From positions 1 through 36,439 of the forward strand of contig CAYVWL010000002.1 of NCBI GenBank assembly GCA_964455475.1: a DNA stretch of 36,439 bases, in the 5' to 3' direction. Under the pieces are notes generated by a model that was not told the DNA's origin, did not search any database, and was given only the letters and a program-made list of their open reading frames with translations. Positions 17,670 through 25,938 of this stretch are shown one piece after another. Position numbers and translations under genes: made by a program. The stretch is from an uncultured Candidatus Saccharibacteria bacterium (lineage in GTDB: Bacteria; Patescibacteriota; Minisyncoccia; Phycocordibacterales; GWA1-40-21). The stretch's first letter is position 1. Every line of letters begins with the position of its first letter.

Positions 17670-18968
17670 ATGAAAAACAGTAAATTATTTCAATACATTG
17701 TCTTTGGCCTCTTTATCTTTTTTATTATCGTTGGTGCTATCCTCTTTTCCACCTATCGCTCGACAGATAAAAATGCCGTCGCCGTAGATATTACCATGTG
17801 GGGCACTCTGCCGTCAGAGAACTTTAGTCCTTTTGCTACCGATTACTTTAACAAAGCGGGGTTAAAATATTATGTAAAATATGAACAGCGGGATCCAGCC
17901 ACTTTTGATGCCGATTTGGTGGAAGCCCTCGCCTCCGGTACTGGCCCAGACGCCATTATTTTGCCAGATGACTTGATTGTCCGCTATAGCAATAAGATTT
18001 ACCCTATTCCTTATACTATTCTGCCCGAGCTAAATTTCAAACAGACCTTTATTCAAGAAGGTGAATTATATCTGACTAATAGTGGAGTCTTAGCCCTGCC
18101 GTTTATGGTGGATCCACTGGTCATGTATTGGAATAGGGATATGTTTAACAATGTGAGCGTGACCAAGCCCCCGGCCACCTGGGCCGATATTTTGGCCCTA
18201 GTGCCAAAGATGACCAAGAAGGATCAGAATCAAAATATTTTAGCCAGCACCGTGGCCCTGGGTGAATTCCGCAATGTAAATAATGCCAAGGATATTTTAA
18301 GTGCCTTGATGATTCAGTCCGGTAATCCACTCGTCAAATCAAATTCTGACGGTTCATTTCAGAGTACTTTAAATTATGATTTTGGCCTGAGTACTTCACC
18401 GGCAGTCCTGTCCCTACAATTCTTTACTAATTTTTCCAATCCCACCAAGGCTAATTATTCCTGGAACCGCTCTCTACCAAGCTCTATAGACGCTTTTGCC
18501 AATGGTGATTTAGCACTATATTTTGGTTATGCCTCCGAGTATCTGAAAATAAAAAATAAAAATCCAAATCTGAATTTTGATGTGGCTCTTCTCCCACAGA
18601 TTGCCGGTGCCAAGATACTGAATACCTTTGGGAAAATATCCGCTTTTGCTATCATGAAAAATTCAGCGGATCCAGCCGGTACCTTTACGGTCCTATCCGC
18701 CTTGACCAGCGCTTCGGCTTTTCCGTTCTGGAATCCTGTTTTCAATTTACCATCAGCTAGGCGAGATATTTTAAGCCAGGTGGACCAGAGTCCCGCTAAA
18801 ACCATCTTTAACAAGAGTGCTGTTATGAGCAAAGGCTGGCTGGATCCAAACCGGGCCCAAACCAGCAGTATTTTCCAGGATATGGTAGAATCATTTACGA
18901 CCGGGCGGGAAAGCCTGGACTCTGCGGTTAGTACCGCGTCAGATAGATTGGATGGTTTGTTAAAATAA
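17670..18968 (+). CDS. Membrane-anchored extracellular solute-binding protein (family 1 SBP-like), with no transporter partners nearby
   Basis: N-terminal TM (FQYIVFGLFIFFIIVGAILF). SBP-like stretches GTGPDAIILPDD, ALPFMVDPLVMYWNRDMF and KPPATWADIL. The ATG directly follows the TAA of the methyltransferase. The stop overlaps the next ATG (TAATG at 18966-18970). Confidence 0.65.
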   Translation: MKNSKLFQYIVFGLFIFFIIVGAILFSTYRSTDKNAVAVDITMWGTLPSENFSPFATDYFNKAGLKYYVKYEQRDPATFDADLVEALASGTGPDAIILPDDLIVRYSNKIYPIPYTILPELNFKQTFIQEGELYLTNSGVLALPFMVDPLVMYWNRDMFNNVSVTKPPATWADILALVPKMTKKDQNQNILASTVALGEFRNVNNAKDILSALMIQSGNPLVKSNSDGSFQSTLNYDFGLSTSPAVLSLQFFTNFSNPTKANYSWNRSLPSSIDAFANGDLALYFGYASEYLKIKNKNPNLNFDVALLPQIAGAKILNTFGKISAFAIMKNSADPAGTFTVLSALTSASAFPFWNPVFNLPSARRDILSQVDQSPAKTIFNKSAVMSKGWLDPNRAQTSSIFQDMVESFTTGRESLDSAVSTASDRLDGLLK

Positions 18969-19393
18969 TGTATTTGATTAATAATAAAAAATTTTTTGCT
19001 GGCATATTTTCTCTTCTGTTTTTAATTTTGCCTTTATTGTCTTATTCAGCACTTATTGATTGTAATATTGCTACAACAACCCCTACCGCAACAAATCCAT
19101 CTGGCTTTGTAAAACCCTGCAATTTTTCTACTTTTGTAGAAACAATAAACCGAATTATTAATTGGATTATTAGTATTGCTGGGGTAATATTCACCATCTC
19201 TGCTATTTGGGGCGGTTTTCTCTATATGACTTCGGGGGAGAAGCCGGCTAACAAGGAAAAGGCTAAAAGTATACTCTGGAATACTTTATTGGGATTTGTT
19301 ATAATATTGGTAGCCTGGCTCATCGTATATACAATACTAGTTAATTTGGTAAAAGATGGAGGTGCAAATTCGATTTTTAGATTCTTACAATAA
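18968..19393 (+). CDS. VirB2/TrbC-like (T4SS-pilin-type) small membrane protein, paralog 1
   Basis: Signal peptide, a Cys pair (IDC...KPC), then TM1 (IISIAGVIFTISAIWGGFLYM), a charged loop (TSGEKPANKEKAKS) and TM2 (LLGFVIILVAWLIVYTIL). This architecture is typical of proteins annotated as pilin in CPR and Gram-positive T4SS loci. Confidence 0.65.
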   Translation: MYLINNKKFFAGIFSLLFLILPLLSYSALIDCNIATTTPTATNPSGFVKPCNFSTFVETINRIINWIISIAGVIFTISAIWGGFLYMTSGEKPANKEKAKSILWNTLLGFVIILVAWLIVYTILVNLVKDGGANSIFRFLQ

Positions 19394-19394
19394 A

Positions 19395-19748
19395 ATGAAA
19401 AAATTCTTACCACATATAATAGCTTCATTTGCAATAATGTTTCCATTGTTCTTGTTTGCCGGGCCTAGTGGTTACACTATAGATAATCCACTAAAATCAA
19501 ATGATGTGAAGGGTATTTTGATGGATGTTATGAAGCTGGTAGCTACTGTCGGTGCGATAATTGTGGTTTTCTTTATAATTTATTCTGGTTATAAGTTTGT
19601 GACTGCTAGAGGTGATCCAGGCAAGATTGAAGAGGCTAAGAAAACCTTTTATGCCACTGTCATCGGGGGAGCTATTCTACTTGGGGCGGATATTATTGCT
19701 AATATCGTGGTAAATACGGTTAAGACCACAACTGGTACCACTTTTTAA
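19395..19748 (+). CDS. VirB2/TrbC-like small membrane protein, paralog 2
   Basis: Start taken at MKKFLPHII (ATG 19395, 1 nt after the preceding stop). Signal peptide, TM1 (LVATVGAIIVVFFIIYSGYKFV), loop ARGDPGKIEEAKKT, TM2. Confidence 0.65.
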   Translation: MKKFLPHIIASFAIMFPLFLFAGPSGYTIDNPLKSNDVKGILMDVMKLVATVGAIIVVFFIIYSGYKFVTARGDPGKIEEAKKTFYATVIGGAILLGADIIANIVVNTVKTTTGTTF

Positions 19749-19770
19749 TTATTATTTAATCTTCATTTGA

Positions 19771-20124
19771 ATGAAAAAAATTATATACATTTTCTACTCA
19801 TTCGTTCTTCTGGCCCTAGCTATTCCCGTATTTGGAGCTCCAGCTACCACTTTTAGAAGTTTAATTGACAATACTATAATAGGAGGAATATTGAAGCCTC
19901 TCGTGCCCCTTCTTATTGGGCTTGCAGTAATAGTCTTTATATACGGAGTACTCTTACTTATGTTTTCCGAGGGAGGAGAGAAGAAGGAAGAGGGCAAGCA
20001 ATATATGCTCTGGGGAATTATTGGTATTTTTGTGATGGTATCAGTCTGGGGTCTGGTGGCCATACTTAGTAATACTCTTCAGTTGGATAACGCCCCAAAA
20101 ACCGTCAAAATCGAATTGAAGTAA
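19771..20124 (+). CDS. VirB2/TrbC-like small membrane protein, paralog 3
   Basis: Signal peptide MKKIIYIFYSFVLLALAIPVFG, TM1, loop SEGGEKKEEGKQ, TM2 (MLWGIIGIFVMVSVWGLVAIL). Confidence 0.6.
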   Translation: MKKIIYIFYSFVLLALAIPVFGAPATTFRSLIDNTIIGGILKPLVPLLIGLAVIVFIYGVLLLMFSEGGEKKEEGKQYMLWGIIGIFVMVSVWGLVAILSNTLQLDNAPKTVKIELK

Positions 20125-20150
20125 GTACAGACTCCCTGTGGATACCTTGT

Positions 20151-20179
20151 TTGCTGATTTAATGATAAAAAGTTATAAT
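20151..20179 (+). promoter_or_regulatory. Internal promoter within the pilin-like array
   Basis: TTGCTG (20151-20156), 17-nt spacer, TATAAT (20174-20179), in the only long (110-bp) gap of the array. Confidence 0.5.
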
Positions 20180-20234
20180 TATCAGGTAAAAATAATCAAA
20201 GGTCGTAAATTTATTAATCGCTTAGGATAAAATT

Positions 20235-20624
20235 GTGAAAAAAATTATAATCAGTCTGGGTTTAACTATAATAGTAGGGTTACCTATGCTGGTTTTAGCT
20301 CAGACTAGTATAAATTCACTTTTTGTTAGTGCCAGGACCATTCTAAACAGCGCAATTATATTCCTGATCTCCCTTGCTGTCTGTTGGTTTATCTGGAATG
20401 TGATTCAGTATGCTATCGCCCAGGATGAAGAAAAAAAGGGAGACGCAAAAGGTCAAATGGTCTGGGGGATAATTGCTATCGCTGTTATCGTATCAATCTG
20501 GGGTTTGGTGAATATCTTGCAGGTACTTTTTGGAACCAAGACTGATAAAGCCAAGACCAATTCAGAACTAGAGAATATGATACCCGGGGTAGTCTTGCAA
20601 ATAGAAAATATAGCAGAAGTTTAA
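20235..20624 (+). CDS. VirB2/TrbC-like small membrane protein, paralog 4 (GTG start)
   Basis: Signal peptide, TM1 (FLISLAVCWFIWNVIQY), loop AQDEEKKGDAKGQ, TM2 (MVWGIIAIAVIVSIWGLVNIL). Shares a 30-nt identical block (20376-20405) with paralog 5 (20831-20860). Confidence 0.6.
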   Translation: MKKIIISLGLTIIVGLPMLVLAQTSINSLFVSARTILNSAIIFLISLAVCWFIWNVIQYAIAQDEEKKGDAKGQMVWGIIAIAVIVSIWGLVNILQVLFGTKTDKAKTNSELENMIPGVVLQIENIAEV

Positions 20625-20659
20625 AAATATTTATTAGTTTATTAATTTATTAAAATAAT

Positions 20660-21028
20660 ATGAAAAAAATTGTCAAAATTGGAGTGGGATCACTTTGGGC
20701 TTTGCCTTTTATGGCACTAGCAGCGGGTGCGGCAGGTACTGTCGATGGTAGTTATTTAACTGGCTTATTTGATAATGCAAAATGGATATTGGATAAAGTA
20801 GTTGTCTTTCTTATTTCCTTGGCTGTCTGTTGGTTTATCTGGAATGTGATTAGTTATACCATATCAGAGGATGAGGAAAAGAAGGGTGCGGCCAAGAGCC
20901 AGATGATCTGGGGTATTGTGGCTATCGCTGTCATCGTTTCCATTTGGGGTATAGTGGCTATCCTTCAAAATCTGTTTGGAGCGGGTGGTGGAACGGCTAT
21001 AACTCCAGCAGATCTTCTCCCACAATAA
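20660..21028 (+). CDS. VirB2/TrbC-like small membrane protein, paralog 5
   Basis: Signal peptide, TM1 (FLISLAVCWFIWNVISY), loop SEDEEKKGAAKSQ, TM2 (MIWGIVAIAVIVSIWGIVAIL). Looks like a recent duplicate of paralog 4. Confidence 0.6.
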   Translation: MKKIVKIGVGSLWALPFMALAAGAAGTVDGSYLTGLFDNAKWILDKVVVFLISLAVCWFIWNVISYTISEDEEKKGAAKSQMIWGIVAIAVIVSIWGIVAILQNLFGAGGGTAITPADLLPQ

Positions 21029-21034
21029 TATCAA

Positions 21035-21295
21035 ATGCACGGTACACCTATAGCTACAAATACGTTAATACAAAATATATTAGATAATATTGTAAATCCA
21101 ATAGTCACTTTGATGCTGGCTGTTGCACTGATAGTCTTTCTCTGGGGTGTTTTCCAGTTTGTTCGTAATGCGGAGAGTTCGGAAGAAAGAAGGACTGGCG
21201 GGTTTCATATGATGTGGGGTGCTATAGGTCTATTTATCATGGTGACAGCATATGGAATATTGAATTTGATTTTAGGGACGATAGGGAAGCAATAA
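21035..21295 (+). CDS. VirB2/TrbC-like small membrane protein, paralog 6 (no obvious signal peptide)
   Basis: Two TM segments flank the loop NAESSEERRTGG. Same core layout as paralogs 1-5. Confidence 0.5.
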   Translation: MHGTPIATNTLIQNILDNIVNPIVTLMLAVALIVFLWGVFQFVRNAESSEERRTGGFHMMWGAIGLFIMVTAYGILNLILGTIGKQ

Positions 21296-21325: not shown

Positions 21326-21364
21326 CAAAAAACACCCCTCGCCAAACAGCTCAGGGTGCTTTTT
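21326..21364. terminator. Possible bidirectional terminator at the left edge of the G+C-rich island
   Basis: A-run, CACCCC (21333-21338) ... AGGGTG (21353-21358), T-run. The stem is short and the loop large, so the call is weak. Confidence 0.35.
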
Positions 21365-21412
21365 GATGCCGTTCATCACGGCACCAACTCTACTAGGTTT
21401 GGAAACCTCCTC

Positions 21413-22039
21413 TTACTCCATCGTCCCAATCAGGCTGCAGATCGCCACTGGTCCATCTGGTAGCCAGGTAATTGTCCCTGACCAGGCATTTGTCCCCGTC
21501 TCACGCATATCTACCCGACTGTGTTCCTTTGGCCTGTCCTGGTCCCTATCTCCGGACCAAGTTTTGCCTGCCTTCAGTCCGACCCTGCCCAGACGTATCC
21601 TTTCCCTTTCTGGCCTACCAAATTCGATGTAGGGAACATCGAAATACAGGGATTCGGTGCTGTTTTCAATCATCTCAGCCACCGTTACTTCATCGGCGTT
21701 TCTGTTTCGTCCGTGGATGTACTCCCCAGACGGAACGTACCATGTCCACCGGTACACCATCTTTTGGGTACGGGCAACTGGTATCTGACTGACACTGAGA
21801 GGAGCTGGCAACGCAGGATTATTCAGTCTGCTCTCCTCCTGGGCCTTCTGCTCACGTTGCCGATTCTGAGTCATCTCCCGAAAGAGAGGCACGAGAATCA
21901 GTGCGATAATAAGCGCCGACACTGTGATCAGCCAAGGCTTCTTCCTCCCCGCCGTCCCTTTCATCGCTTTCCAGGCCCACACGATCAGGACGATAATGAG
22001 TAGGCTAACGAGCAGAAATTCTACATGTACAACGGTCAT
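21413..22039 (-). CDS. Hypothetical membrane protein (two N-terminal TM segments plus an unrecognised soluble domain)
   Basis: ORF with a strong SD (AAAGGAGAGACTC-ATG). TM1 FLLVSLLIIVLIVWAW, TM2 WLITVSALIIALILVPLF. Composition is G+C-rich relative to the flanks. No family recognised. Confidence 0.6.
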   Translation of the reverse strand: MTVVHVEFLLVSLLIIVLIVWAWKAMKGTAGRKKPWLITVSALIIALILVPLFREMTQNRQREQKAQEESRLNNPALPAPLSVSQIPVARTQKMVYRWTWYVPSGEYIHGRNRNADEVTVAEMIENSTESLYFDVPYIEFGRPERERIRLGRVGLKAGKTWSGDRDQDRPKEHSRVDMRETGTNAWSGTITWLPDGPVAICSLIGTME

Positions 22040-22052
22040 GAGTCTCTCCTTT

Positions 22053-22079
22053 GGGTGGCGAGGACATTCCTCGCCACCC
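22053..22079 (-). promoter_or_regulatory. Perfect 11-bp intercistronic stem-loop between the two island genes
   Basis: GGGTGGCGAGG-ACATT-CCTCGCCACCC. It lies between the stop of the SPFH-like gene (22088) and the SD/start of the downstream gene (22039). Confidence 0.7.
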
Positions 22080-22087
22080 GGTGTTGA

Positions 22088-23245
22088 TTACTTCGGTTCC
22101 GGCTTCTTGCTTCCAGCTTGATCAAGATTGATTAGGGAGTTACCCCCAATCACTTGAGGCTTTGCAATCTCAATCGCCAGCGCCATTGCTTGCTCGGGAG
22201 TGAGATCTCTCTGTGCCACGAGTCGGCGAAGCACCTGATTTACCATGAGACTGGCAGCTTCGGCTGTTCCTTGGCCTTCCAGTATACGCTTCTCTCTCTC
22301 AGCCCTCGCCGTTACTACCAGGTTGTCTGCAGCAATTGCTGTAGTCTTGGTTGAGGCATAGGCTGCCGCTATGGCTTCCGCGCCACCTCCAGAGAGCTCG
22401 ATTCCGATTATGTCGATCGAGATCAGGGTGTAGCCGGTAGCCTCACTCAATGTGCCGAAACCGCAGTCCTTACTGTTGAGCTCTTTTGTGAGCCCCATCA
22501 GGTAGGCCGGCCCTCTAGCATTCTTGAGTTTTAAGGCCTCAGCGTAATCCATATCTCCGGCTGTCTCCCTCAACCCTTGCATGACATGAGCCTTCAGGAT
22601 CTTGATACTGCCACGATTCTTTATCTTGGCGATATAGGCATTGGTCATCTTGAAAGTAATGACCACATCCCAGTCGATCTTCGACGCCAGATCCGCAAGC
22701 TCTAGTCCTGGCACTAACAACCTTTCTGTGGATTGGATCGGAAGGTATATGACATCAGAGTATGGTGTCACCTTCATGCCAACCGAGCCATTCGGCTCAT
22801 TGACAAGCTTGACCTGTTCAGTATCGAAAGTCATGGCACCATGAAGGGGCCACAAGCCGATCCAGGTAAATCCCAGCCCAGCACTAGAAGTACTGTCAGA
22901 GTCCTCCGTAATCTCCCCACCTGGATGAATGGTGTGACCTCTCATCGCTCCGATAGCTCGGTCGAACTCGCCATTCTCAATGCCGTAATAGAGTAGGGAT
23001 ACAAACCCTTCTCTCTTAGCATAGATAAATAAGGCCTTCTTCCCGAGAATGTACAGAGCCATCATCATGCCGGCAAGGACCGTCAGGGCGAAAAATCCGT
23101 ACACCAGGACATCCACCCAGCCCAATTTGATTGTCAGAATAGTCTCCTTGTTTACAGAATAAGCCCAAAACGAAAGGGCCAAAACTGTGAGAACCCGGAG
23201 TATCATTGCCAGAACCTTCATTGTCTCTTCTCCTCTGCGCATCAT
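22088..23245 (-). CDS. SPFH/band-7 (stomatin/prohibitin/flotillin-like) membrane protein
   Basis: Two N-terminal TM segments. The central beta/alpha region ends in ISIDIIGIELS, followed by an Ala/Glu-rich helix (AAAYASTKTTAIAADNLVVTARAEREKRILEGQGTAEAA), as in SPFH proteins. The assignment is from memory of family patterns. The likely true start is ATG 23221 (MKVLAMIL), preceded by GAGGAGAAG. Confidence 0.5.
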   Translation of the reverse strand: MMRRGEETMKVLAMILRVLTVLALSFWAYSVNKETILTIKLGWVDVLVYGFFALTVLAGMMMALYILGKKALFIYAKREGFVSLLYYGIENGEFDRAIGAMRGHTIHPGGEITEDSDSTSSAGLGFTWIGLWPLHGAMTFDTEQVKLVNEPNGSVGMKVTPYSDVIYLPIQSTERLLVPGLELADLASKIDWDVVITFKMTNAYIAKIKNRGSIKILKAHVMQGLRETAGDMDYAEALKLKNARGPAYLMGLTKELNSKDCGFGTLSEATGYTLISIDIIGIELSGGGAEAIAAAYASTKTTAIAADNLVVTARAEREKRILEGQGTAEAASLMVNQVLRRLVAQRDLTPEQAMALAIEIAKPQVIGGNSLINLDQAGSKKPEPK

Positions 23246-23404
23246 GCGCGTCGTACGTTACTACACTAAGCTAGTTTCCAAACCTGTCAAAGAACAGGCA
23301 GTAGGACGGGCTTTTGCCCTCCTCTGCAAGCCTTTAGGCAGGTCAGAGAAGGGAACACCCCTCCTTGTAATCTATCTATAATACTAGCATATTTGAATCA
23401 AAAA

Positions 23405-24400
23405 GTCAAGGAAAATGTTATGGTTCAATAGCTTGGAAACACTTCCCCATATATACTATGAAAATGTCATACACAAAGAATCCGTATCTCCCCAAGGTCC
23501 GTCAGGACGCCGCCGACTTGGTCCGTCGCGGTTGGGGCGTGAGAAAAGTCGCCAGATATGTCGGGGTCAGTCCGGGGACGATCACCAAGTGGGTTAAGAG
23601 AGCTAAGGTAATTGGCTACCACCCCATCCCCACCCTGTCCTCACGACCAAAACATCATCCGCGACAACTGAGCAGTGAATTGGTTTGGAAAATATATCAT
23701 AAACGAGTTCAGATTAAACGGAGCGCCGAGGTGGTCAGACAGGAATTGATCAACGAAGGAATACCGGTGTCCCTGTCTTCGGTCAAACGAACTTTAGACC
23801 GGATGGGTTTGCTAAACAAGAGAAGTCCGTGGAAACGATATCATTTGCCAATCCAGCGACCAGACGTCCAAAAACAAGGTGATTTGGTGCAAATTGACAC
23901 TGTTCACCTTCTGAACGAACATGGGAAAAGAGTGTACGTTTTCACTTTGCTTGATGTGTATTCACGATATGCTTTTGCTCGCGCCTACGAACGAGCGACT
24001 TCAGCCACCGCTTTTCGTTTTCTGAATTGGTGTCAGAAGCAAGTAGATTTCAAATTCCAAACCGTCCAAAGTGACAACGGTTCCGAGTTCGCTGGTTGGT
24101 TCAGTGATCATATTAAATCCGTCCACCGACATACCAGAGTGCGAAGACCAAATGACAATGGACACCTGGAGAGATTCAACCGCACGGTGCAAGAGGAATG
24201 TTTGGACAAGGTGGAAAAGAAAGTTTCGAAGATCAATCAAGCCCTGACAAAATACATGAAATATTACAACGAAAAACGTCTGCATTTTGGGTTGAATTTG
24301 CAGACACCTTTACAAGCTTTAACTAACAAGTGTTTCCAAGGTATTGATTAGAATACGGGAAAATAAGGAGAGAGCAAAAGCGAGCGACTATATTTTCCTA
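23405..24400 (+). mobile_element. IS481-family-like insertion sequence (boundaries approximate)
   Basis: Single DDE transposase ORF. An imperfect terminal inverted repeat is possible: AAGGAAAATGTTATGG near 23411 against the reverse complement of CGACTATATTTTCCTAT near 24385-24401 (an AGGAAAAT core plus scattered matches). No direct repeats seen. Confidence 0.5.
23458..24351 (+). CDS. IS481-family DDE transposase (HTH + rve integrase core)
   Basis: N-terminal HTH (RRGWGVRKVARYVGVSPGTITKWVKR). DDE candidates in LVQIDTVHL, VQSDNGSEF and NGHLERFNRTVQEE, with retroviral-integrase-like spacing. Confidence 0.8.
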   Translation: MKMSYTKNPYLPKVRQDAADLVRRGWGVRKVARYVGVSPGTITKWVKRAKVIGYHPIPTLSSRPKHHPRQLSSELVWKIYHKRVQIKRSAEVVRQELINEGIPVSLSSVKRTLDRMGLLNKRSPWKRYHLPIQRPDVQKQGDLVQIDTVHLLNEHGKRVYVFTLLDVYSRYAFARAYERATSATAFRFLNWCQKQVDFKFQTVQSDNGSEFAGWFSDHIKSVHRHTRVRRPNDNGHLERFNRTVQEECLDKVEKKVSKINQALTKYMKYYNEKRLHFGLNLQTPLQALTNKCFQGID

Positions 24401-24515: not shown

Positions 24516-24590
24516 TGTGGGCGAGGGGAGACTTGGTCACCAATATTTTTCTGCTGAAAAATTTGGCTACCCCGCCTCATACCGTCGTAT
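24516..24590 (-). pseudogene. Internally deleted copy of the tRNA-Leu(TAG) locus: 3'-terminal 20 nt fused to upstream spacer
   Basis: TGTGGGCGAGGGGAGACTTG (24516-24535) is identical to 24671-24690, the tRNA-Leu 3' end. The following roughly 52 nt match the spacer upstream of the intact gene (24779-24829) at about 41 of 52 positions. The junction shares ACTTG microhomology. Confidence 0.7.
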
Positions 24591-24620
24591 TCCGGCCTTC
24601 AAGATCTTCCCCCCATCCTC

Positions 24621-24664: not shown

Positions 24665-24672
24665 AAGTTTTG

Positions 24673-24753
24673 TGGGCGAGGGGAGACTTGAACTCCCATG
24701 CCTTGCGGCACTAGCTCCTAAGGCTAGCGTGTCTACCGTTTCACCACTCGCCC
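24673..24753 (-). tRNA. tRNA-Leu (anticodon TAG), type II with long variable arm
   Basis: Hand-folded: GGGCGAG TG GTG AAACGGTAGA CAC G CTAGC CTTAGGA GCTAG TGCCGCAAGGCAT GGGAG TTCAAGT CTCCC CTCGCCC A. 81 nt, CCA not encoded. Confidence 0.9.
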
Positions 24754-25218: not shown

Positions 25219-25938
25219 TTATCTATGCTTCTTCAATATATCCTTAATTTTACTAGTGAATCTCTCTGATCTTAAATACAAATATTCCTTAAATGTGTTG
25301 TATTTTCTTCTCATAAATAAGTCACTATCCACATTATTATACATAAATTCAAATAATTTCATAGTGTCTGTAGTGTTGTAACGTAGTTGATATGATCTAT
25401 GGCTAGTATATATTTTGAAGTTCTTCTTATTTGTAATATGGTTAATTGATGTCCCTAAACCTGTAAGGAAGTCAGTACTTCCACTAGTGAAAGCGATTAG
25501 TAATCTTTTCAAAATAGATTGACCATTTATTCCAATTGATTTCTCTAAATAAACGCATCCATCTCCATCAAAATATCCTCTGATAAAATGCCTAAGTTGG
25601 GTATTTGGTACTTTTGGAAATTTCACGTTAAGTGATTTATTTGGGTATAAACCTATCTCACCCAATCTGGCATATAGTCTGTGACTACCAATTCTCAGAG
25701 TATACCTAGTCTGTCTAGTTTCAACTAATTGTGCCTCAACCTTTATCTTATGCTCAGATTTCAATAGCTTTTTAAACAATATGATCCGATCCTTATCTAT
25801 ACTAGTTACAGATATGTATCTTGCTCTTATATAACTGCAGTCAGATAGGCTACCATCTGCATAGAGATATCCAAGAACGTAGGCCATTTCTGGTCCCCAT
25901 TTGTGGAAGAATTCCTCATTTATTTTATGTTTGAACAC
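25219..25938 (-). CDS. LAGLIDADG homing endonuclease, free-standing, two-motif (monomeric type)
   Basis: Motifs LGYLYADGS and IRGYFDGDGCV, about 100 aa apart. Very AT-rich. GTG start 6 nt downstream of a TATAAT box. The stop lies 3 nt from the 5' end of tRNA-Cys. Confidence 0.85.
   Translation of the reverse strand: MFKHKINEEFFHKWGPEMAYVLGYLYADGSLSDCSYIRARYISVTSIDKDRIILFKKLLKSEHKIKVEAQLVETRQTRYTLRIGSHRLYARLGEIGLYPNKSLNVKFPKVPNTQLRHFIRGYFDGDGCVYLEKSIGINGQSILKRLLIAFTSGSTDFLTGLGTSINHITNKKNFKIYTSHRSYQLRYNTTDTMKLFEFMYNNVDSDLFMRRKYNTFKEYLYLRSERFTSKIKDILKKHR

Follow-up and report, generated by a model that had tools for sequence, protein, structure and literature searches.

A predicted SPFH-fold membrane protein and a partner of a new barrel family fill a fixed slot beside a VirB2-like pilin array in Patescibacteria

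Introduction

What holds two membrane-protein genes together beside a pilin gene array, and are they cargo of a mobile element or residents of the locus? The question is raised by contig CAYVWL010000002.1 of an uncultured Candidatus Saccharibacteria bacterium (assembly GCA_964455475.1), the 36,439 nt of which are referred to here as the window. Two minus-strand genes, A and B, with a perfect 11-bp hairpin between them, lie in the window between an insertion sequence (IS) and a run of VirB2-like pilin genes. A sequence-only reading of the window had taken the pair for the cargo of a mobile island, perhaps one serving phage defence. Our follow-up indicates instead that A and B form an operon for a divergent SPFH-fold protein and its membrane-anchored partner, which fills one fixed slot beside the pilin array whether or not an IS is present. 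For the Patescibacteria, which live attached to other microbes, VirB2-like pilin arrays count among the few loci connected with this way of life.

Results

Protein A

Profile searches do not place A. The protein has no match in Pfam (E ≤ 0.1), NCBIfam, PHROGs, PADLOC or the sequences of the PDB apart from noise in transmembrane (TM) segments, and neither A nor its four closest family representatives reach the gathering score of Band_7 (PF01145). Among 5.8 billion proteins the relatives of A make up only five clusters (45–66% identity), and a family profile searched against 1.84 billion representatives found 7 close and ~50 remote proteins.

The AlphaFold2 (AF2) model of A has an overall predicted local distance difference test score (pLDDT) of 52.8 and a predicted TM-score (pTM) of 0.38, with pLDDT ~70–88 in the core (residues 170–300). 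It shows four strands, helices, a further strand and then helices 289–324 and 328–346, which is the SPFH alpha/beta fold with long C-terminal helices, in a model of whole-chain pLDDT 52.8. All of the 50 best Foldseek matches in the PDB are SPFH proteins, among them HflK/C, stomatin, prohibitin, erlin, the vault shoulder and QmcA; TM-scores are 0.6–0.75 on isolated SPFH domains, and the root mean square deviation on isolated stomatin SPFH domains is ~3 Å. Pfam Band_7 is matched by 20 of the 30 remote A homologues tested. It scores above the Pfam cut-off in proteins at the equivalent position in other families, with 83.7 bits in L065 and further cases in L064, L063, L068, L102, L105, L113, L127 and L136. 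Two hydrophobic segments, seen both in hydropathy and in the model, precede the SPFH part as an N-terminal membrane anchor; the homologues of L001, L003 and G008 have one such segment. By predicted fold and transitive homology, A is a very divergent SPFH-fold membrane protein. The description of A as SPFH-like, with about 380 residues and two N-terminal TM helices, thus holds, with the SPFH identity resting on Foldseek and on the Band_7 domains of remote homologues and not on a direct profile match.

The open reading frame (ORF) of A allows 385 amino acids, and the ATG at 23221, which gives 377, is the likelier start because a GAGGAG Shine–Dalgarno sequence (23230–23235) stands 8 nt upstream of it and because the database gene call (P0001, 377 aa) begins there.

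Protein B

The AF2 model of B (pLDDT 75; barrel 80–92) consists of two TM helices, a charged, Pro-rich disordered linker and a C-terminal barrel at residues ~94–207. DSSP of the model assigns to this domain of ~115 residues eight antiparallel strands in an up-and-down barrel. The best Foldseek matches are designed beta-barrels (E 4e-4, TM-score 0.71 on the target), and lipocalins match at E ~1e-2 to 1e-1 with TM-scores of ~0.4. NfeD, YuaF, YbbJ and chains with the oligonucleotide/oligosaccharide-binding (OB) fold are absent among the 50 best PDB matches. B has no Pfam, NCBIfam, PADLOC or PHROG assignment, and PDB sequences likewise yielded nothing beyond noise from its TM segments; none of 13 B-family members matches NfeD (PF01957), and none matches a lipocalin Pfam family. 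PF01957 has no match in the whole genome, whereas 13 of 14 control genomes do match it. A word-indexed homology search with B found B itself alone, and a profile of 13 sequences found three proteins. Since words from TM segments saturate the candidate list of such a search, relatives of B were sought through the neighbours of A and by six-frame searches of genomes.

We conclude that B belongs to a new family, predicted to join a TM hairpin to a calycin-like, eight-stranded barrel. The NfeD domain is a five-stranded OB fold, which the eight strands of the B model do not form. B does have an N-terminal TM region together with an all-beta domain that is soluble, and it shares an operon with an SPFH gene; this likeness bears on how B may work and not on family membership. 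Because the succession of hydrophobic N-terminus, hydrophilic stretch and all-beta domain matches the layout of NfeD proteins (PMC2636767), B is treated here as an NfeD-type client outside the NfeD family. The 208 residues and two TM helices noted earlier agree with ORF, hydropathy and model, and the view that B is not the usual NfeD partner is upheld. The soluble domain had been called unassignable: profiles indeed assign it to nothing, whereas the model gives it a lipocalin-like barrel of eight strands.

A fixed slot

The slot, in which the pair is always found in this genus, has the order tRNA-Leu(TAG), A–B, VirB2-like pilin array and gene for a family-1 solute-binding protein (SBP). The related locus L001 reads GyrA, methyltransferase, SBP, six pilins, B, A, tRNA-Leu(TAG), further tRNAs, RbfA and IF-2, which is the order of the window without the IS. 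Every locus with an A homologue has a B homologue directly downstream, with 28–32% identity to the B of the window, and a search of genome contigs with the A profile found no related loci.

The IS481-like element is single-copy in the genome and absent from all orthologous loci. Its inverted repeats (23425–23444 and 24328–24347) enclose the transposase gene only, and one contig apparently joins both IS ends. The IS was considered as a carrier of the pair or as part of a composite transposon and rejected, since it is a single copy, its own ends exclude A–B and the orthologous loci lack it. It is an unrelated, later secondary insertion that ends 16 nt upstream of the −35 box of the A–B promoter and so leaves this promoter intact. 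The mobile-island reading fails because the pair fills one fixed slot, also in relatives that have no IS. Co-occurrence of the two genes, on which the earlier interpretation had staked itself, is found at all A-homologue loci, with the other SPFH subtypes of the genus and at eight of eight distant loci.

Link to pilin arrays across the order

The SBP gene occurs exactly once in each of 61 genomes (one per genus), with 29–47% identity outside the window's genome. It is always followed by pilin genes, and no ABC permease was seen nearby. At the eight distant loci, all found with the B profile, the B-like gene in every case comes after an A-like gene, and the two stand tail-to-tail with the pilin genes; Band_7 is matched by six of the eight A-like proteins, and by four of these with scores above the Pfam cut-off.

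A census anchored on the SBP gene covered 40 families and scored SPFH genes with our own hidden Markov model (HMM) within three genes past the array on the opposite strand. The HMM identified SPFH genes in 14 families and the Pfam cut-off added 5, for 19 of 40. At 18 of these 19 loci the next gene on the same strand encodes a protein with 0–6 predicted TM segments, and the two genes are usually tightly coupled. The pair stays by the pilin array though the other flank varies between tRNAs, ribosomal protein genes and a response regulator, and in L135 it lies inside the array. Nine partners from other families have no Pfam domain save for one sub-threshold SLT match. This match (E = 0.0046, short of the Pfam cut-off) comes from an SLT-like ES...GIMQIN motif in the partner of L138; such a motif would act outside the cell. 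A similar beta-rich tail, approximately F-[RK]-S-[LI]-x-G...V-x-V, is seen in the partners of L102, L106, L114, L123, L130 and L138.

VirB2-like pilins of Patescibacteria have been surveyed in work on the type IV secretion system of these bacteria, with 441 arrays of 2–11 divergent pilin genes (PMC12102498), and the six-gene PF18895 array of the window is of the same kind. The words SPFH, Band 7 and stomatin are absent from the text of that survey (Microb Genom 2025). The convergent SPFH–partner pair and the universal SBP lie outside the published description of the arrays.

Exchange of the coding part

In a six-frame search with the B profile, 9 of 16 species of the genus proved to have B, and an A-like gene stood immediately upstream of it in each case. 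At least four subtypes of A, which do not recognise one another in BLAST, are combined with this one B family, and an additional kind of A in G016 weakly bridges two of them. The B of L001, partner of a type I A, is 56% identical to the B of G010, partner of a type II A, and 35% identical to the B of the window; the B tree splits across the A subtypes with support of 98/96. Two complete cassettes stand in tandem in G003 (L045, G003:C54, 3300–6900), with A of subtypes IV and III and each equipped with a promoter-like sequence, both the 5′ and the 3′ box and a terminator of its own. Four B fragments lie at contig ends in G005. Promoter, boxes and position are fixed while the A and B content changes, and the coding part behaves as an exchangeable cassette in which A subtypes and B lineages have been recombined between species.

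Promoter, leader and hairpin

A–B is one transcription unit, a two-gene operon in the ~0.65-Mb genome of an ultra-small freshwater bacterium of the Paceibacteria/Parcubacteria (Patescibacteria). A consensus scan found a near-consensus promoter (Table 1), which is almost identical in L003, L006, G006, G008, G010, G012, G002, G004 and G003; the transcription start was inferred from its −10 box. The leader (23225–23374) folds with −54.1 kcal/mol (z = −2.8), and no Rfam family matches it. A local 5′ hairpin, CCTGT...ACAGG, was considered as a switch and set aside, as it is not conserved in L001, G006 and G003a.

The hairpin between the genes is exactly where it had been described, and it is conserved. 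It ends 1 nt ahead of a purine-rich stretch, AAAGGAGAG, that contains the B Shine–Dalgarno sequence AAGGAG, 7 nt ahead of the B ATG. As minus-strand RNA it has a folding energy of −25.8 kcal/mol (z = −4.9), and none of 200 shuffles was equally stable. Perfect stems of at least 11 bp number ~60 distinct cases in the 654-kb genome, so the class is not rare; the sequence of this one is unique there, which rules out a dispersed palindromic repeat. An equivalent intergenic hairpin is present in seven of eight loci of the same A subtype (type I). Double compensatory changes affect 6 of the 11 pairs, and the hairpin with compensatory changes is kept in L001, L003, L006, L007, G006 and G008. The other A subtypes lack it; their A and B genes are translationally coupled, either overlapping or separated by 1–14 nt. 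An intrinsic terminator was also rejected, there being no U-tract on the coding strand and the terminator-scan prediction being on the wrong strand. Most likely the hairpin sets the A:B ratio, through partial termination or through stabilisation of the 3′ end of the A message.

Complementary boxes in the two untranslated regions

The 5′ untranslated region (UTR) contains a conserved 20-nt box, and the 3′ UTR repeats the last 12 nt of it as their exact reverse complement. The 654-kb genome has no copies of these 12 nt beyond the two at the A–B operon, and an inverted repeat of this length arose in none of 300 shuffles. The 5′ copy lies 64 nt upstream of the start codon (40 nt from the ATG at 23245; ~80 nt at most elsewhere) and does not cover the Shine–Dalgarno sequence; the 3′ copy is 0–10 nt past the B stop codon across loci. 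Both are inside the transcript span, between promoter and terminator.

A 5′ copy is present in 14 of 16 genus-type cassettes (exact in 10). Both boxes are present in 11 of the 16, with any A subtype and in both tandem cassettes of G003. In the other five, L003 has a slipped pair, G008 has an insertion in the 5′ copy, and L006 and G005 are cut by contig ends. G016, from a neighbouring genus, has no boxes, the box pair is absent from ~430 kb of loci of other families, and no significant flanking inverted repeats were found in nine loci outside the genus.

As an RNA duplex the boxes are predicted to pair with −20.8 kcal/mol. Across the ten internal pairs, pairing is preserved in 110 of 110 locus-cells; internal substitutions number only three, and each results in a G.U pair. 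Because of these intact pairs and G.U substitutions we favour, from the comparison of sequences, pairing of the 5′ and 3′ UTR boxes within the mRNA. Downstream of the 3′ box, the segment 21296–21412 folds on the minus strand with −42.2 kcal/mol (z = −4.7), and its hairpin at 21329–21362 looks like a bidirectional terminator shared with the pilin genes.

Composition and transcripts

The rise in G+C over the pair is real: 0.48–0.52 compared with 0.36–0.44 in the flanks. The G+C content at third codon positions (GC3) of A and B lies at the 96th–97th percentile of 490 ORFs of the genome. GC3 of the pair exceeds that of the flanks in every genome, for example 0.62–0.64 versus 0.31–0.37 in L001 and 0.64–0.77 versus 0.35–0.41 in G006. 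High GC3 as a mark of high expression was rejected, as the ORFs with the highest GC3 look accessory or hypothetical and not ribosomal, though this test was shallow. These ORFs (GC3 0.65–0.73 in a genome of 42% G+C) include C17:5652–6404, C9:3113–4153, C14:2543–3184 and others that look hypothetical, accessory or secreted, so the SPFH cassette is not the only GC-rich patch.

Two contigs of 151 nt from one lake metatranscriptome match perfectly inside B, and one more lies in the fifth pilin gene (20660–21028). Contigs of three DNA runs reproduce the window and show no inversion joints, with the limit that contigs hide rare variants.

Table 1. Coordinates of the A–B operon and its neighbours in the window.
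Feature	Position	Strand	Description
Gene A	22088-23245	-	ORF 385 aa; predicted divergent SPFH/Band-7-fold membrane protein
Gene B	21413-22039	-	ORF 208 aa; two TM helices, linker, predicted C-terminal barrel
A–B promoter	23381-23409	-	-35 TTGACT, 23404-23409; 17-nt spacer; extended -10 TGcTAGTAT, hexamer 23381-23386
5′ leader, ~150 nt	23222-23374	-	variable G/C hairpin(s), then conserved 20-nt box TCTTTGACAGGTTTGGAAAC
5′ box AGGTTTGGAAAC	23274-23285	-	coding strand; last 12 nt of the 20-nt leader box
Stem-loop GGGTGGCGAGG-ACATT-CCTCGCCACCC	22053-22079	-	perfect 11-bp stem (11-12 bp), 5-nt loop
3′ box GTTTCCAAACCT	21395-21406	-	exact reverse complement of the 5′ box; 6 nt after the B stop codon
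3′ UTR hairpins	21329-21387	-	include A-tract/U-tract terminator (hairpin 21329-21362); probably shared with convergent pilin operon
Six VirB2-like (PF18895) pilin genes	18968-21295	+	conserved convergent neighbour
SBP gene	17670-18968		family-1 solute-binding protein; precedes the pilin array
IS481-like element	23425-24347	+	transposase 23458-24351; rve and helix-turn-helix domains; 20-bp terminal inverted repeats
tRNA-Leu(TAG)	24672-24753	-	conserved; anchors the slot at its promoter side

Discussion

Topology and proposed function

Positive-inside charge counts place the SPFH domain of A in the cytoplasm. In B, the loop before the last TM segment has 3–5 positive and no negative charges; placing this basic loop in the cytoplasm puts the predicted barrel outside the cell, a position that the Pro/Ser/Thr-rich linkers of B proteins fit. 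We therefore put forward that A would form an SPFH ring or cage on the cytoplasmic side of the membrane, by analogy with QmcA, HflK/C and stomatin, and that the ring would enclose a patch of membrane holding the TM hairpins of B, in a predicted A–B contact. This proposal combines the charge-count topology with the behaviour of SPFH cages in solved complexes. The barrel of B would be presented at the outside of the cell near the pilin machinery, and A and B together may form a membrane platform with the pilin/SBP apparatus for host contact or for uptake of hydrophobic ligands. At the level of expression, the strong promoter would drive the A–B operon, the hairpin would uncouple B from A, probably giving more A than B, and the 5′ UTR box would pair with its 3′ UTR complement and close the mRNA.

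The interpretation that we prefer is an operon for an SPFH scaffold and its membrane client that works with the pilin apparatus, behaves as an exchangeable cassette and was later joined by an unrelated IS; we give it a probability of roughly 0.55. Several results weigh against it. The window's own A has no profile match, and its whole-chain model is poor (pLDDT 52.8, pTM 0.38), so the ring or cage is extrapolated from the SPFH family. The outside barrel comes from charge counts only, and a B variant, G003a, has a single TM segment with the positive charges after it. By our own HMM and Pfam, about half of the sampled families have no SPFH gene at this place. The A–B operon is convergent with the pilin genes and not co-transcribed with them, and the functional link between the two is read solely from their conserved neighbourhood. 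RNA data amount to two short contigs in B and none in A, and the raised GC3 has no account in a model of SPFH cage and pilins. The boxes are confined to the genus and nearly invariant, with no clean double compensatory change, and the L003 pair is slipped.

A more specific version, offered tentatively and with low confidence, regards A–B as an envelope-interface cassette in which the cage would organise a ligand-binding barrel at the surface (elsewhere a wall-cutting or other partner) for the pilins. Species would exchange versions of scaffold and partner at this single site, and the unit would be kept whole by an mRNA architecture not described before, made up of the conserved leader and UTR boxes pairing across ~1.9 kb.

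Comparison with known systems

The pair is a variation on the SPFH–partner theme: its partner is of a new family, its link to VirB2-like arrays is conserved, and its mRNA has unusual features. Like the SPFH–NfeD operons (Escherichia coli QmcA–YbbJ, PDB 8z5g; Pyrococcus horikoshii PH1511–PH1510; Bacillus subtilis FloT–YuaF), A–B combines a membrane-anchored SPFH protein with a small partner that has an N-terminal TM region, a hydrophilic linker and a C-terminal all-beta domain (NfeD layout, PMC2636767), and A shares with QmcA a cytoplasmic SPFH domain, which in A is predicted. In contrast to these operons, B has no NfeD signature, has eight strands in ~115 residues instead of a five-stranded OB fold and is probably outside the cell; A escapes the Pfam Band_7 profile and the pair is tied to a pilin array and swapped as a cassette. 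The best structural matches of A are HflK/C–FtsH and other SPFH cages (PDB 7vhq, 7wi3 and 9paw), and our model of a ring that corrals client TM helices is taken from cages of the HflK/C–FtsH type. HflK/C faces the periplasm and holds a protease; the SPFH domain of A is predicted to be cytoplasmic, and B has no catalytic signature.

Pairing between 5′ and 3′ UTRs is known in bacteria from Staphylococcus aureus icaR and B. subtilis hbs. The predicted A–B pairing resembles these in that a short motif of the 3′ UTR is the complement of one in the 5′ UTR of its own message; it differs in that the 5′ box of A–B lies 64 nt upstream of the start and off the Shine–Dalgarno sequence.

Were the preferred interpretation true, an SPFH scaffold with its client, found across the order, would add a missing component to the pilin apparatus, and SPFH biology would gain a new class of client, here a small lipocalin-like barrel. 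Patescibacteria are thought to depend on their hosts for lipids, which makes lipid capture a testable idea. For the study of composition bias in tiny genomes, the steady GC3 excess of this locus, fixed in place and yet recombining, offers a clean case, and the box pair and hairpin are compact cis elements.

Alternative explanations

Alternatively, A–B could be a general membrane-quality or stress module, an SPFH/NfeD-like pair whose adjacency to the pilin genes is gene order inherited in small, stable genomes. SPFH–NfeD pairs elsewhere do stabilise membrane proteins (PMC13086221, PMC2636767), B has the NfeD-like layout of N-terminal TM region, hydrophilic linker and all-beta domain, the pair is convergent and not co-transcribed with the pilin genes, and the flanking housekeeping order (GyrA, IF-2, RbfA) is conserved as well. 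We nevertheless consider this unlikely. The genome has a canonical Band_7 gene on another contig (C28, 149 bits), the pair keeps its place beside the pilin array where the other flank differs, the L135 pair is inside the array, and replacement of subtypes within one genus fits a housekeeping role poorly.

The exchange of subtypes also invites the idea of a hypervariable cassette for surface recognition or a phage receptor, with the boxes as DNA sites for site-specific recombination, either terminal repeats or sites of a phase-variation inversion. Identical short inverted repeats do bound a coding part whose cargo is A subtypes too different to be recognised as related; the tandem cassettes of G003, the four B fragments at contig ends in G005, the incongruent histories of A and B, a GC3 that looks foreign in every host genome and the 8-mer TTGGAAAC that the IS inverted repeats have in common with the box all point the same way. 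However, no recombinase is conserved at the locus (no genome-wide recombinase search was made), and the IS is in this genome only, as one copy. All assemblies examined have one orientation, and the contigs of the three DNA runs contain no inversion joint, though rare variants would be hidden in them. Both boxes also fall within the transcript, from promoter to terminator. The three G.U-compatible substitutions, for which we estimate a chance of ~1 in 60 to 1 in 200, are what RNA pairing, unlike a DNA repeat, would lead one to expect. Recombination sites are therefore a doubtful account of the boxes, and pairing within the mRNA is the reading that we retain.

An abortive-infection or other anti-phage system on a mobile island, the suggestion of the sequence-only reading, would suit a fast-diverging two-gene membrane module of no known function with atypical G+C and with an IS and a tRNA gene adjoining. 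It is very improbable: neither protein has a PADLOC (E ≤ 1) or PHROG match, the neighbours are pilins, tRNAs and housekeeping genes with no defence genes near, the IS does not enclose the genes, and the locus, unlike defence islands, keeps its place throughout the genus and turns up again in about half of the families sampled from the order. We give equally little credence to the boxes as twin operators of a dimeric DNA-binding regulator, acting by looping or repression, for although the 3′ copy is a 14-nt near-palindrome (AGGTTTnnAAACCT) in most loci and the 5′ copy comes just past a conserved TTGACA, a box whose only two copies in the 654-kb genome belong to this operon would call for a regulator of its own where regulators are very few, and the GG/CC at its centre takes strictly opposite orientations at the two ends of every locus, which a symmetric operator does not need.

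Additional observations

Three further features lie on the promoter side of the operon. The terminal repeats of the IS contain TTGGAAAC, the 8-mer also present in the 5′ and 3′ boxes, which may be coincidence. Between the IS and the intact tRNA gene, positions 24516–24596 hold a deleted second copy of tRNA-Leu(TAG), in which the final 20 nt of the tRNA run into a copy, 77% identical, of the spacer found upstream of the intact gene. Between rbfA and tRNA-Cys there is an AT-rich, free-standing gene for a LAGLIDADG endonuclease (25219–25938). The corresponding junction in L001, where rbfA ends 12 nt before tRNA-Cys, has no such gene, and gaps of ~500 nt between tRNA-Cys and tRNA-Leu(TAA) in G010 and G012 may hold a similar one.

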